64,000 nt of DNA from Nitrospira sp. UBA5698 (GCA_002420115.1 DIHK01000007.1:60136-124135); one strand, 5' to 3'; shown: positions 9,451-37,077, numbered from the stretch's first letter. Numbers and translations: made by a program. Notes: a model not told the origin generated them from the sequence alone.

Positions 9451-10096
9451 GTGAAGCATTCCTCCGCGTTCTTGCTGGGATATGGGTATGGTCGGTGAGT
9501 GGCTCGCCGAGCCCCCGGGCGCTCAATTGACGGCGCACGAACAATCGAGCCCGGTGTAATCGTGATTTTACCGCTCGCTCATTTAACCCCATGATGGTCC
9601 CAACCTCCTTGGCGCTGACTCCCTCCATATCGCGGAGCACCAAGACCATCTTGTACTTCTTCGGTAGTTGATTGATCGCCGTATCGAGCGCCTCCCGCAA
9701 CTGCTTATTGTGGAGTGCGGCTTCGGGGCTCAGGCCATCGATCGGAATCTGTAACCGAAATTCACCGTCTGATGTGGGGATGAATTCCTCGAGTGATAAC
9801 TCTCGCTCAGGCGCGCCCTTCCGTTTTCGCCGCATGCGTAGGCAGGCCCGCGAGGCGATCGTGTACAACCATGTTGAAATCTGGGCATCGCCACGGAACC
9901 GGTCGAGGCCTCGATAGGCATTCAGAAAGGTCTCCTGGACCAAATCCTTCGCAGCCTCCGTTTCCCCACACAAGCGGTGGGCGAAACGATACATGAGATC
10001 CACATGATCTCTGTACATCGTATCAAAATCCTTCGCCGATCGGGTCTGAGTCGAGGGTTTCTCAGGCCGGCGGTCTGTGGCGGGTGATGCATTCAT
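9428..10096 (-). CDS. ECF (sigma-70 group 4) RNA polymerase sigma factor
   Basis: AKDLVQETFLNAY, ISTWLYTIA, region 4 AVKSRLHRAR. Confidence 0.9.
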   Translation of the reverse strand: MNASPATDRRPEKPSTQTRSAKDFDTMYRDHVDLMYRFAHRLCGETEAAKDLVQETFLNAYRGLDRFRGDAQISTWLYTIASRACLRMRRKRKGAPERELSLEEFIPTSDGEFRLQIPIDGLSPEAALHNKQLREALDTAINQLPKKYKMVLVLRDMEGVSAKEVGTIMGLNERAVKSRLHRARLFVRRQLSARGLGEPLTDHTHIPARTRRNASHGTREHL

Positions 10097-20099: not shown

Positions 20100-20177
20100 G
20101 GTGGGTGTAGCTCAGTTGGTTAGAGCGCCGGATTGTGGATCCGGAGGTCGCGGGTTCGAAACCCGTCATCCACCCCA
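20100..20177 (+). tRNA. tRNA-His (GUG) with G-1 and encoded CCA
   Basis: Acceptor GTGGGTG/CATCCAC, anticodon arm CCGGA-TTGTGGA-TCCGG, T-loop GTTCGAA, C discriminator. Confidence 0.97.
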
Positions 20178-21388
20178 CTCGCCCTTCTCGGAACTACTGA
20201 ATACTCAAGCTGATCCGAAGAAACCGGCCCCATAGCGGCACCTACCGGTTGCGCGGGGGTTGCAGAATTGGGCAGTCCCACGGGTGTATCCAGCCGATCG
20301 ACGGCTTGCTTGTTCCCACCTGGGATGAGGTGTCCGTAGAGGTCCACGGTCACCTGAATGGAGCTGTGGCCCATCTGATCTTTCACATAGACCGGGCTTT
20401 CCCCGTTCTGCAGCAGGAGCGAGGCGAAGGAGTGACGTAAGTCATGGAACCGGACTTGTCGCACGCCCGCCCCTTTCAGCAGACGGAAGAATTTCAGGCG
20501 GATCCGGTTCTGATTCAGTGGCTGGCCCTTCTCGTTACAGAAGACCCATGGGGGGCCTTCCTTCCATCCACGTGCGGCCGCTTGAAACTGCCGATCAAGC
20601 TGCAGCGTTTCCAAGGTAGCTGTCAGTTCACGAGACAGGTCCACGCGTCGAGATTCGCCGCTTTTGGGCGTAGTCATCTTGCCGTGTGTGAAATTTCGAC
20701 GGACCTCCACGAAACGCCCCGCAAAGTTGATATCCTCCCACTGAAGGGCCAGAAGCTCGCCTTGCCGTAATCCGGTTCGAGCTGCACAGAGGAACGCCGG
20801 ATAGAGAGTCGGCGCCATGGTCTTCGTATAGGCCAAGAAGAGGGCTAGTTCCTGTCCGGTCAAGGGATTGATCGAACGGCGTTTGCTGATCTTCGGCAGG
20901 AACTTGCCGGGCCGCAGGGCCGGATTGACCGTGACGAGATTATCCTCCACGGCGTGACTGAACAAGCTGCTGATTGTGCGGATGATGTTCTGCACGGTCT
21001 TGGCCGACAAGCCCCGTTGCAGACAGCCGACGGCGAACGCCTTCACCTTCTCCCGGGTGATCTGTTGGAGATCCTGTCCGCGAAAGACCGGGAGAACATA
21101 ACGGTCGAAAATCTTTCGGTAGTCGTCGTGCGTGGTATGTTTACGGGTCTGTTCGATCCGTTCAAGAAAGGTCTGGGCATAGGCGTCGAGGGTCACGCTG
21201 GTCTGTGGGCGGTCGAACGCCGCTTGCCCCAGTGCCAGCCGAGCTTGGATCTGTTGCGCTACCTGCTTGGCAGCTTTCCTGCCAGGCTCTCCGGTGCCAA
21301 TCCGCTTGGCCTTGCGCGTGCCTTGATGGTTGATAAAGACCCACCAAGCCCCTTTCCACTCTCGAATCTTCACGCCCATGAGGCCCAT
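20120..21388 (-). CDS. int: Tyrosine recombinase/integrase; C-terminus reads through attL into the tRNA antisense strand
   Basis: ARTGLRQGEL, RFHDLRHSFAS, MGHSSIQVTVDLYGH. Confidence 0.95.
   Translation of the reverse strand: MGLMGVKIREWKGAWWVFINHQGTRKAKRIGTGEPGRKAAKQVAQQIQARLALGQAAFDRPQTSVTLDAYAQTFLERIEQTRKHTTHDDYRKIFDRYVLPVFRGQDLQQITREKVKAFAVGCLQRGLSAKTVQNIIRTISSLFSHAVEDNLVTVNPALRPGKFLPKISKRRSINPLTGQELALFLAYTKTMAPTLYPAFLCAARTGLRQGELLALQWEDINFAGRFVEVRRNFTHGKMTTPKSGESRRVDLSRELTATLETLQLDRQFQAAARGWKEGPPWVFCNEKGQPLNQNRIRLKFFRLLKGAGVRQVRFHDLRHSFASLLLQNGESPVYVKDQMGHSSIQVTVDLYGHLIPGGNKQAVDRLDTPVGLPNSATPAQPVGAAMGPVSSDQLEYSVVPRRASGVDDGFRTRDLRIHNPAL
20155..20181 (+). repeat. attL core, 27 bp TTCGAAACCCGTCATCCACCCCACTCG
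   Basis: Exact copy at 37051-37077; covers the tRNA-His 3' end. Confidence 0.95.
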
Positions 21389-31512: not shown

Positions 31513-32046
31513 TCAGATAACCATGCGAGCCACCTCCTGACGGTCGTTCGACACCGGTCGGAACTCCCGTTCCAACAAGTCTGGAAGCCCCTGTGCAAAT
31601 GGTGACAGTCCGCTCTTAAGACAATGCTTCCTGGCCAGCAGGAGAAATTCGTTCATCAGCTCCGGGTTATCCGGAAGATTGCGAACCCGCGCAAGCACTG
31701 CCTTCTGAACATTCTTGCTGTCGGGCTGCTGATACCGGAGCGCGTTTCGGATGAGGAGGAGGTTCGTTTTCTCATCGAATCGAATGAATCCCTCCTCCTC
31801 GAGTTTCAACAGCATGTCCTTGACCCGCCGGAGCGGCCAGGCCATATCCGCAGCGACGTATTCCGGCGGCAACACAAAAAAGCCTTCCAACGTGCGGTGC
31901 TTCGTCGTCAGAAGGTGCAACGCGAAGAGCCTCTGCGAGTCTGGCCAGGTGGCGACCTTCTCATCCGACCAAAAGTGACAAGCTATGCGGTAATACCTCG
32001 GCACATCGGGGCGCTTTGGTTTATTGGTTTGCTCGTCGTCCAACAT
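31513..32046 (-). CDS. Phage replication initiator / replisome-organiser N-terminal winged-HTH protein
   Basis: RYYRIACHFWSDEKV..LFALHLLT..H..LEGFFVLP..YVAADM..LEEEGFIRFDE..LLIRNALRYQ. Confidence 0.75.
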   Translation of the reverse strand: MLDDEQTNKPKRPDVPRYYRIACHFWSDEKVATWPDSQRLFALHLLTTKHRTLEGFFVLPPEYVAADMAWPLRRVKDMLLKLEEEGFIRFDEKTNLLLIRNALRYQQPDSKNVQKAVLARVRNLPDNPELMNEFLLLARKHCLKSGLSPFAQGLPDLLEREFRPVSNDRQEVARMVI

Positions 32047-32066: not shown

Positions 32067-32477
32067 TTAGTGAGCCGTCGATCGACTCATGGCACGGCCA
32101 GTCCTTCGCGTACTAGGCATCTGTAACGGATCAATCGGATCGGAGTTGCTGAATAATTCATGAGTGAGCCGAACATAGGTGACGAGCTCGCTCACGTCGT
32201 CAAACTCACTTCTCAATTCGTCAACGATGAGTTGCACAATGCTGGCATCGATATGTGATCGGCTTTCTGCAGCCATGAACAACAGATCCAACCGCTTCTT
32301 ACAGTTCCCGAGAATGTACAGGGCGAGGTCACCATCTTCTGCAAACCATTTGAGGCCGAATGGTTTCTGATCAGTCACGTCCCTGATCTGTCCATCTTGA
32401 TCGCGATGGAGAACTCTTGCCTGTAACGCCAACCTCGGCTCGGTTTCCTCAGTTTCGGTCGTCGTCTTGGTTTTCAC
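32067..32477 (-). CDS. Hypothetical protein
   Basis: AGGAGG RBS, GTG start. Confidence 0.6.
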   Translation of the reverse strand: MKTKTTTETEETEPRLALQARVLHRDQDGQIRDVTDQKPFGLKWFAEDGDLALYILGNCKKRLDLLFMAAESRSHIDASIVQLIVDELRSEFDDVSELVTYVRLTHELFSNSDPIDPLQMPSTRRTGRAMSRSTAH

Positions 32478-32532
32478 AGGACCTCCTGGTTTAGAAGTTC
32501 AGAGCAAACGGTGCACCGGAGATACGTCACGT

Positions 32533-32679
32533 TCACGATCGCAGTTCCTTTCGTTGCTTAAATTCCTTCTCCAGCAGATTACGGATGAACCCACTGGCCG
32601 AAATCCCCTCCTTTCGCAAGGCATCCAATTTGACCTTCATTCCCCTCGGCACGCTGATCAGTATCTTCACCATCGCCAT
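32533..32679 (-). CDS. Ribbon-helix-helix (Arc/CopG-like) regulator, 48 aa (absent from ORF track)
   Basis: MAMVKILISVPRGMKVKLDALRKEGISASGFIRNLLEKEF; GGAGG RBS. Confidence 0.8.
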   Translation of the reverse strand: MAMVKILISVPRGMKVKLDALRKEGISASGFIRNLLEKEFKQRKELRS

Positions 32680-32702
32680 AGCCTCACCTCCAATGACTAT
32701 AA

Positions 32703-32769
32703 ATATAGATTTCTATATATTCATATGTCAAGGCATATGATTGACTATATCGAGCGTGGCCAGTACAGT
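32703..32769. promoter_or_regulatory. Divergent sigma70 promoters with two palindromic operators
   Basis: Rightward TTGACT(32741)-N17-TACAGT; leftward TTGACA(32731)-N18-TATATT; inverted repeats ATATAGA-TT-TCTATAT and TCATATG-N6-CATATGA. Confidence 0.75.
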
Positions 32770-32780
32770 ACCGAGACGCA

Positions 32781-32960
32781 ATGGCGACGAAGGGCAGTAA
32801 CTCAACGGAAAAGCGAAGGAAAGTGTTTGGCTTGAGCCTCGATCGACAGCTCATGCTCGATATCCAGCACTTAGCACTCGACCAAGACCGCTACGTGAAT
32901 GAGATGATTGAAGAAGCTGCGAAGGACCTGCTGAAGAAGTACCGAGAGAAGGCGAAATAG
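32781..32960 (+). CDS. Ribbon-helix-helix regulator, 59 aa, probable element repressor (absent from ORF track)
   Basis: RRKVFGLSLDRQLMLDIQHLALDQDRYVNEMIEEAAKDLLKKY: beta-helix-helix pattern. Confidence 0.8.
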   Translation: MATKGSNSTEKRRKVFGLSLDRQLMLDIQHLALDQDRYVNEMIEEAAKDLLKKYREKAK

Positions 32961-33062
32961 ATACCTTCAGCTTATGAGCTGACAAGAATCAGGCGGCACG
33001 TGCCGAGTGCCTTCATTGCGATCCATCCCCAAGACCCAGCAGGAAGAATTACGAGGCACACG

Positions 33063-33521
33063 ATGAAAAGCTCGATCACCTTTGGACGGCTGGGCACCCA
33101 CAGCCTACTGGCTTTCTTCCTTATCGCCTTTACTCTGGGCTGTACACGCCTCACACCGCAAGAACGGGAACACTACGCTTCTCGTGTCTATGATATCCCT
33201 CATGACCGCGTGTTCGAAGCAGTCAAAGAGCGGGTGCGGCAATACCCGATGGGTCTACAAGAGACTGATCTACAGCAAGGCCTTGTGAAAAGTCGGATTG
33301 GTGGGACCACGCCGGGCATCGGAGCGACCGTCGGCTATCAAATCACCGTCATGACCACGGCGGAAGGCCAGCGGACGAGGGTGGTTCCAACCTGGCAGAT
33401 GAATATTTCATCAGAACCAACCAAAACCCACTTGCTTCCTGTCACGATCGACGATCGGCCGTTGCTCTATTTGGAGTTCTTCGACGCACTCGATGAACAG
33501 CTCGAGAAAGCACGTCAGTGA
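33063..33521 (+). CDS. Lipoprotein of unknown function
   Basis: Signal II FTLGC; start refined to ATG 33063. Confidence 0.75.
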   Translation: MKSSITFGRLGTHSLLAFFLIAFTLGCTRLTPQEREHYASRVYDIPHDRVFEAVKERVRQYPMGLQETDLQQGLVKSRIGGTTPGIGATVGYQITVMTTAEGQRTRVVPTWQMNISSEPTKTHLLPVTIDDRPLLYLEFFDALDEQLEKARQ

Positions 33522-37050: not shown

Positions 37051-37077
37051 TTCGAAACCCGTCATCCACCCCACTCG
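37051..37077 (+). repeat. attR core (duplicate of tRNA-His 3' end)
   Basis: Identical to 20155-20181. Confidence 0.95.

Follow-up and report, generated by a model that had tools for sequence, protein, structure and literature searches.

Phage satellites are known to be silenced by helix-turn-helix master repressors (Stl/Rpr) or, in the case of P4, by RNA. In the immI region of phage P22 two ribbon-helix-helix (RHH) repressors, Mnt and Arc, are encoded divergently, their promoters Pmnt and Pant lie close together and the operators are situated inside the promoters. To our knowledge, the mobile-element biology of Nitrospira, a key nitrifier, is almost undescribed. The gene set of immI consists of mnt on one side and arc-ant on the other (PMC8022706). 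The Stl/Rpr repressors of phage-inducible chromosomal islands (PICIs) and Staphylococcus aureus pathogenicity islands (SaPIs) are insensitive to the SOS response, carry no cleavage domain and are lifted by a helper-phage protein, and the way in which Gram-negative PICIs are silenced is still unclear (PMC6092414). In the present study we analysed a stretch of 64000 nucleotides from Nitrospira sp. UBA5698 (GCA_002420115.1 DIHK01000007.1:60136-124135; the whole stretch is called the window hereafter), in which two small divergent genes, RHH-L (32533–32679, minus strand) and RHH-R (32781–32960, plus strand), face away from each other across a 101 bp intergenic spacer (32680–32780). We propose, with a probability of about 0.6, that this cassette controls transcription in a satellite-like island, with RHH-R as the maintenance repressor and RHH-L as an Arc-like early product.

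An initial interpretation of the locus made from its DNA alone (the sequence-only reading) held that phage and PICI switches normally use helix-turn-helix proteins; this overlooks P22 immI, itself a divergent RHH pair, and the design is therefore not new. The cassette shares with immI two small divergent RHH genes, closely spaced promoters and the lack of a peptidase domain, and, in addition, RHH-R stands alone like mnt, whereas RHH-L is first in its operon like arc. However, immI is a secondary immunity region controlling ant, whereas the operon led by RHH-L includes genes for replication, for packaging and for an integrase, which gives the cassette the look of a primary control region for its island. 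Further differences are that Mnt has an extra C-terminal tetramerization domain, which the 59-residue RHH-R lacks, that sequence similarity is marginal, and that Arc binds its control region, whereas our comparison of spacers found no element that tracks RHH-L. The cassette is thus like immI in layout, but is not a member. Its likeness to PICIs and SaPIs lies in a divergent regulatory pair that heads replication and packaging genes, and in the presence of int and a small terminase with no capsid genes. However, Stl and Rpr are larger helix-turn-helix proteins, whereas both regulators of the present cassette are RHH proteins of minimal size. In those islands, moreover, the master repressor gene is next to int and read in its direction, whereas here int closes the operon that faces away from the candidate repressor. 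The cassette resembles a PICI regulatory module in position and purpose. A full-text search of the literature found no paper that joins RHH proteins with PICI regulation or satellite repressors.

RHH-L encodes a protein of 48 amino acids (MAMVKILISVPRGMKVKLDALRKEGISASGFIRNLLEKEFKQRKELRS) and is the first gene of a long leftward operon, and RHH-R encodes 59 amino acids (MATKGSNSTEKRRKVFGLSLDRQLMLDIQHLALDQDRYVNEMIEEAAKDLLKKYREKAK) comprising a basic N-terminal tail, a ribbon of sequence KVFGLSLD and two helices. These are real genes. Substitutions relative to their relatives fall mainly at the third codon position (e.g. 6/5/23 and 11/6/32 at positions 1/2/3), and both open reading frames (ORFs) are, as judged from such comparisons, under purifying selection. 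Homologues of RHH-L form 42 clusters, with an invariant LDALRKEG..ASGFIRNLLEKEF motif, and those of RHH-R at least 765, and all named clusters on both sides are from Nitrospira; N. moscoviensis and Nitrospira sp. BLG_1 each encode a member of the family. In the partners the C-terminal helix of RHH-R is almost invariant (..NELxEEAxKDLLKKYREK). The sequence-only reading had placed both ORFs, and the 101 bp between them, exactly; its description of them as unannotated was only partly true, as public records name relatives ‘hypothetical protein’ or ‘CopG-like’. It had also seen no peptidase domain, and our Pfam scan likewise detected neither a peptidase nor any other extra domain in either protein. 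A profile–profile comparison of RHH-L with RHH-R was not significant, and on this ground we rejected the idea that the two are paralogues.

The assignment of both proteins as RHH-like, made in the sequence-only reading from residue patterns, is supported by two different types of evidence, namely AlphaFold2 (AF2) modelling with Foldseek for RHH-L and profile alignment with solved RHH proteins for RHH-R. The AF2 model of RHH-L (predicted local distance difference test score 71) has the expected strand-helix-helix form, with residues 1–11 extended, a helix at 12–23, an EGIS turn and a second helix at 28–47. Foldseek returned three matches only, all of them RHH proteins, i.e. ParD2 (TM 0.65, root-mean-square deviation 1.7), RelB and NikR; the E-values were non-significant, as expected for 48 residues. 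RHH-L scored 17.2 bits against Pfam VAPB_antitox (cut-off 27.9), and 22 of the 24 members of its family gave sub-threshold matches to Pfam families of the RHH clan and to no others, the best E-values being 7.8e-5 for RHH_1 and 7e-4 for RHH_5. RHH-L had no PDB sequence match and no NCBIfam match, and membership of the YlcI/YnfO family was rejected for these proteins because the NCBIfam model gave no match. For RHH-R, a profile built from all subtypes (A3) gave four top PDB matches that were all RHH proteins: 2kel (SvtR; E=1.2e-3), 9kkd (CopG family; 4e-3), 4me7 (EndoAI; 0.04) and 4aai (E73; 0.2). The alignment with SvtR is nearly full length and includes the basic N-terminal tail. In addition, 23 of 25 RHH-R family members match Antitox_RHH and 16 of 25 match RHH_1, all below threshold, and the best phage-family match is the PHROG ‘Arc-like repressor’ (E=8e-4). 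The K-V-F-G-L-S-L-D pattern, two predicted amphipathic helices and the alignment with solved structures together argue for an RHH fold in RHH-R.

We then considered the spacer, in which promoters were called by a sigma-70-like consensus scan. The leftward promoter P_L (32702–32731, minus strand) consists of a −35 box TTGACA (32731–32726), an 18-nt spacer and a −10 box TATATT (32707–32702) and has 11 of 12 consensus matches; the rightward promoter P_R (32741–32769, plus strand) has a −35 box TTGACT (32741–32746), a 17-nt spacer and a −10 box TACAGT (32764–32769), with a score of 9 out of 12. A gap of 9 bp separates the two −35 boxes, which stand back to back. Palindrome 1 (32703–32718; ATATAGA-tt-TCTATAT) combines two half-sites of the ATATAG type and overlies the −10 box and spacer of P_L, and palindrome 2 (32721–32740; TCATATG-N6-CATATGA) encloses the −35 box of P_L and stops 1 bp before that of P_R. 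The analysis thus recovered both the paired −35 boxes and the two perfect palindromes of the sequence-only reading, including the one said to overlap the leftward −35 box and abut the rightward one. A third ATATAG-type hexamer (32745–32750, CTATAT on the plus strand) overlaps the 3′ edge of the P_R −35 box and may be autoregulatory, and a weaker half-site, CTATA (32697–32701), lies between the P_L −10 box and the predicted start of transcription. Approximately 2–3% of dinucleotide shuffles of the spacer contain two perfect inverted repeats with 7-bp arms, and three ATATAG hexamers within 101 bp have a post-hoc shuffle P of approximately 0.008. Neither palindrome has a further copy in the window.

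The two genes are set up very differently for translation. RHH-L has a strong Shine–Dalgarno (SD) sequence on the minus strand (GGAGGTGA; 32684–32691), 4 nt before its ATG, and an SD motif of the AGGAGGTG type precedes RHH-L in nearly all relatives, in which a TTGACA/TTGCTA box with a −10 box approximately 18 nt away occupies the place of P_L. In contrast, the ATG of RHH-R is only 11 nt past the P_R −10 box and has no SD motif, so that its leader would be only approximately 4–5 nt, in agreement with the near-absent leader proposed previously. The layout TTGAC[TAC]-17/18-TAnnGT, with 7–11 nt to the ATG and no SD motif, is found in every operator class except the E-type loci described below, in which RHH-R has a 14–16-nt leader and a GAGGTG motif. 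The mRNA for lambda cI made from P_RM is leaderless, and that promoter is back to back with an early lytic promoter. RHH-R is similar in having its ATG 7–11 nt past the −10 box without an SD motif; however, cI belongs to the helix-turn-helix proteins, its C-terminal domain is RecA-sensitive and its operators are also bound by Cro.

Two side observations concern P_R. Its −10 box reads TAnnGT in every class (TACAGT, TATGGT, TATCGT, TATTGT, TAAAGT and TAGAGT), keeping a G at position 5 despite the departure from TATAAT, which could reflect a deliberately weak promoter or a preference of a Nitrospira sigma factor. In addition, RNA-seq run X25, from a related strain, contains a 151-nt contig of depth 2 (97% identical) that covers window positions 32781–32929 and has its end 2 nt before the RHH-R start codon; this position fits a leaderless start, but the contig is far too thin to count.

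To place the window in a wider context, we gathered approximately 60 loci by exact-protein look-ups and from a species-genome collection, metagenomes and IMG/VR; individual loci are denoted by L numbers. At approximately 35 Nitrospira loci RHH-L lies opposite a small RHH gene, 95–109 bp apart and with back-to-back −35 boxes, and a few further loci were too short for the presence of a partner to be judged. The pair and its spacer stay together, with variable genes beyond either RHH gene. These data show a conserved, modular two-RHH control cassette belonging to a family of Nitrospira satellite-like islands. Within it, the ribbon and first helix of RHH-R occur in at least seven versions of the DNA-reading strand, each with its own repeated half-site in the spacer, the half-site motifs having been picked after inspection of the sequences. 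In the WIN-type, to which the window belongs, the ribbon KVFGLSLD (DNA-facing residues V-G-S) accompanies three copies of ATATAG and two of CATATG, and in the E-type (L056–L059) KTFGLSLN (T-G-S) accompanies ATATAG/CTATAT, some as 8-bp direct repeats. Class D combines KTYAVSFN (T-A-S) with CATATGA, and L014 combines KTYTLSLN (T-T-S) with three copies of CTGTA. Classes B and Bq have KLFGVRMD and KLFGLRLD respectively (L-G-R) with four to six copies of GATA[AG]C, and class C has QQIGARVD (Q-G-R) with four copies of GTAACA. Ribbons that bear arginine pair with G-containing half-sites, and those that bear serine with pure AT sites in this comparison.

The half-sites of classes B, C and E are approximately 8 bp apart and lie over P_L, and the repeats of classes B and C appear at very low frequencies in shuffled spacers. 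The spacers of WIN-type and E-type loci align with each other, with an invariant core TC.ATAT...ATATGTCAA..CATAT..TTGACTA; the ATATG-N6-CATAT core of palindrome 2 is invariant in both types, and palindrome 1 is kept in L013, L024 and L030 and has one mismatch in the E-type loci. The operators of MetJ and of the plasmid protein omega are arrays of short boxes approximately 7–8 bp apart, and not one long palindrome. The 8-bp period in classes B, C and E is similar; however, MetJ, omega and SvtR (of the Sulfolobus virus SIRV1) regulate metabolism, plasmid maintenance and archaeal virus genes respectively, and none has a divergent second RHH gene in a satellite.

Having established the layout, we examined which of the two proteins the operators follow. 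L014 and L015 have identical RHH-L proteins, but different RHH-R proteins and unrelated spacers and operators, and the same swap pattern is seen between L027 and L033 and between L035 and L016/L018. The RHH-L ribbon KLLIQ is present with both GATAGC and ATATAG spacers and, more generally, the RHH-L ribbon (K-L/M-S/M/Q) is independent of the operator classes. For the ribbon and helix A of RHH-R, the correlation with spacer identity across loci has a rho of 0.59 (Mantel p=0.0005), much higher than that for the RHH-L ribbon (rho 0.24). Among all spacers with an MAMVK-type RHH-L we found no common non-promoter motif; SD, −10-like and −35 motifs alone were common, and a shared RHH-L operator in this set was therefore rejected. 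The sequence-only reading had described a mutual, two-way switch, for which we found no support, as the operator half-sites change with RHH-R only and not with RHH-L. The pattern of variation points to an asymmetric rather than a symmetric switch.

The genes, promoters, palindromes, conserved layout and joint variation of RHH-R with the operators are direct observations. From this anatomy and joint variation we infer DNA binding, the identity of the repressed promoter, the role of RHH-L and the induction trigger. RHH-R would be made from the weak P_R on a nearly leaderless mRNA and would serve as the maintenance (immunity) repressor. Its predicted RHH dimer would recognize short half-sites rich in A and T, which in the window island are ATATAG and CATATG in type, and these sites would blanket P_L from upstream of the −35 box to the start site. 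With the array occupied, the leftward operon, carrying RHH-L and the replication, packaging and integrase genes, would be silent. As one site touches the P_R −35 box, negative autoregulation of RHH-R would also be possible. Once repression was lifted P_L would fire, and its first and best-translated product would be RHH-L, acting as a putative Arc/Cro-like early regulator on a DNA or protein target. Since RHH-R has no cleavable domain, induction of the RecA type is excluded on domain grounds and an anti-repressor or helper-phage protein would be the likeliest trigger; no Ant-like (anti-repressor) family was detected in the leftward operon. Derepression by a helper-phage protein, as suggested in the sequence-only reading, would be an analogy with SaPI Stl (PMC6092414). 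In relatives, variable cargo and defence-like genes lie past RHH-R, which fits a side expressed during quiescence.

If correct, this reading would provide a compact candidate silencing control for a whole family of Nitrospira islands, consisting of proteins of 48 and 59 amino acids and approximately 100 bp of DNA, small enough for full synthesis. Its at least seven natural classes of ribbon and half-site form a data set on how RHH ribbons read DNA and on the exchange of immunity types by recombination. Moreover, the cassette is testable in vitro or in E. coli reporters, with no need for Nitrospira genetics.

Several observations weigh against RHH-R as the maintenance repressor. The V-G-S ribbon of the window is also found in L007, L008 and L029, yet the palindromes of these loci are mostly different (TTAAGTACTTAA and AATCTAGATT); positions beyond the ribbon, or the second protein of the pair, must therefore contribute. 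Linkage alone would correlate the spacer with either gene to some extent, and, by analogy with CopG or Arc, the P_L array would fit autorepression by RHH-L just as well. As the choice of half-site motifs was post hoc, their shuffle P values are optimistic. With regard to the fold, structure prediction, which the sequence-only reading had suggested as a check, bore out the strand-helix-helix form for RHH-L, but modelled the RHH-R monomer as a single helix (residues 16–58), and all Pfam matches of both proteins, although to the RHH clan, are below the curated thresholds. Finally, X25 is the sole transcriptome run and comes from a related strain (housekeeping genes approximately 96% identical); it gave depth-2, read-length contigs on both genes and is silent on their expression state.

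The same evidence bears on other ways of reading the cassette. In a bistable switch with the logic of lambda cI and Cro, both RHH proteins would bind the spacer and each would shut the promoter of the other. Divergent genes with back-to-back promoters are what such a switch would have, and the two palindrome types, ATATAG and CATATG, could serve two proteins; moreover, the class C proteins each have a distinct ribbon of their own (R-N-Q and Q-G-R), and class A′ has the RHH-R ribbon of the window, but differs from it in RHH-L (L7M) and in its palindromes. However, the same or a near-identical RHH-L ribbon (K-L-S, K-L-M or K-L-Q) is found beside at least four unrelated operator sets, the MAMVK-type spacers share nothing beyond promoter motifs, and no palindrome in the window lies over the −10 box or the spacer of P_R. 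We consider this reading unlikely. The RHH-L helices are nearly invariant in all types, and RHH-L does not follow the operators. In a further reading, which we regard as a distinctly long shot, RHH-L would not be a Cro-like competitor at all, but a universal partner that inactivates RHH-R through its C-terminal helix, e.g. in mixed RHH oligomers, and locks the island ‘on’ after P_L has fired, with only RHH-R reading DNA in a type-specific manner.

RHH-L and RHH-R might instead be two independent autoregulators with no lysogeny-type switch between them, RHH-L being a CopG-like autorepressor that adjusts the level of the replication operon and RHH-R a local regulator, or an orphan of the antitoxin type, for the variable cargo and defence genes downstream of it. 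The copG gene heads copG-repB, and RHH-L similarly heads a replication module; both proteins show Pfam similarity to antitoxin-type RHH families (VAPB_antitox and Antitox_RHH), and in L057 the RHH-R stop codon overlaps the start of a TIR-domain gene. Against this, the pair and spacer remain together while the downstream genes vary, and the half-site arrays linked to RHH-R lie over P_L and not over a cargo-gene promoter. In addition, searches of the window with Pfam, PHROG and NCBIfam found no toxin family next to either gene; a type II toxin–antitoxin system with an RHH antitoxin was rejected on this result and on the variability of the downstream genes among relatives. Independent autoregulation seems to us rather improbable. 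The remaining explanation, in which the palindromes are a by-product of AT-rich promoter DNA without any regulatory connection to the small ORFs, draws on the AT-richness of the spacer and on a palindrome P of only approximately 0.02–0.03, but is contradicted by a layout kept over approximately 35 loci, by the rarity of the class B and C half-sites in shuffles and by the purifying selection on the ORFs, and we give it almost no weight. The asymmetric control region with RHH-R as maintenance repressor thus remains the reading that we prefer.

The cassette lies in an island bounded by attL (20155–20181, plus strand), a 27-bp core at the 3′ end of the tRNA-His gene (20101–20177), and attR (37051–37077, plus strand), an exact repeat of attL. 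These repeats give the island a length of 16.9 kb, integrated at tRNA-His. All genes leftwards of the spacer are on the minus strand, in the order RHH-L, a 136-amino-acid protein, a DnaD-like loader, small ORFs, an AAA_25 helicase, an HNH endonuclease, a small terminase (Terminase_4), a tape-measure-like protein of 799 amino acids and a tyrosine-type integrase. The second gene (32067–32477, minus strand; 136 amino acids) belongs to no known family and follows RHH-L in many, but not all, relatives. The DnaD-like helicase loader or replisome organizer (31513–32046, minus strand; 177 amino acids) matches PHROG 1701 (E=2.5e-20) and is kept in L001–L008, and int (20120–21388) comes last on the strand of RHH-L, at a distance of 11 kb from the cassette. 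Profile scans of the island genes found no capsid, portal or large-terminase gene. Given its att sites, its gene content and the lack of these three functions, the island looks like a phage satellite, and the satellite-like setting assumed in the sequence-only reading is supported. In the gap between RHH-L and the 136-amino-acid gene (32478–32532) there is a 10-bp palindrome, CGGTGCACCG, which is present in L001 and L027 and altered in other relatives; as it is not kept across relatives, we rejected it as a conserved element.

Rightwards, the cargo side opens with a gene at 33063–33521 (plus strand) that has the look of an exported protein or lipoprotein, with a hydrophobic N-terminal segment ending in LGC, and that gave no family match; its homologues follow RHH-R in L001, L002 and L008. 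PilZ, response-regulator and DUF326 genes come after it. Between RHH-R and this first cargo gene lie a hairpin-type repeat, TCAGCT-TATG-AGCTGA (32967–32982), and a perfect 12-bp palindrome, CGGCACGTGCCG (32994–33005), both of which are retained, slightly changed, in L001 and L008 and may act on the cargo genes as a control site of their own. We rejected the presence of an intrinsic terminator downstream of RHH-R, as the terminator scan was negative, there is no T-run and folding was no better than for shuffles.

With regard to wider distribution, tblastn of both proteins against the isolated phages of INPHARED gave no match even at E≤1, and the RHH-L profile had no match in IMG/VR, in which the RHH-R profile and the operator pattern each found only one uncultivated viral genome, of 17.6 kb. 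L057 and L058, which carry a large terminase (TerL), were considered as complete helper phages and rejected, as they end in TerL, tape-measure-like, chaperone, xis and int genes with no capsid genes; they too therefore look satellite-like. Past RHH-R both carry defence-like cargo (L057, 10183–12490; L058, 10452–11285 and 15761–16831) of the families CAP12/PCTIR TIR domain, SocA_Panacea, FRG and SIR2_2; the gene whose start overlaps the RHH-R stop codon in L057 encodes the TIR domain.

Three further loci illustrate how the cassette varies. In L010 (3180–3310), the sole locus with RHH-L but no divergent RHH partner, B-type-like half-sites (GGATAGCTGTTATC) are present upstream, and this may represent regulation in trans by the repressor of another island or a decayed cassette. 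In L003 (approximately 9600–9770) a fossil A-type RHH-R reading frame (..QQLMLDIQHLALDQDR..) lies just past an intact C-type RHH-R gene, and looks like the scar of an immunity-cassette replacement by recombination. Finally, L060/L061, on the same contig as L058 (1–17300), combine an E-type switch with a lambda GpA-type large terminase, an 836-amino-acid tape-measure-like gene, a tail chaperone and two integrases, with no capsid or portal genes, and represent another satellite-like architecture under this control cassette.

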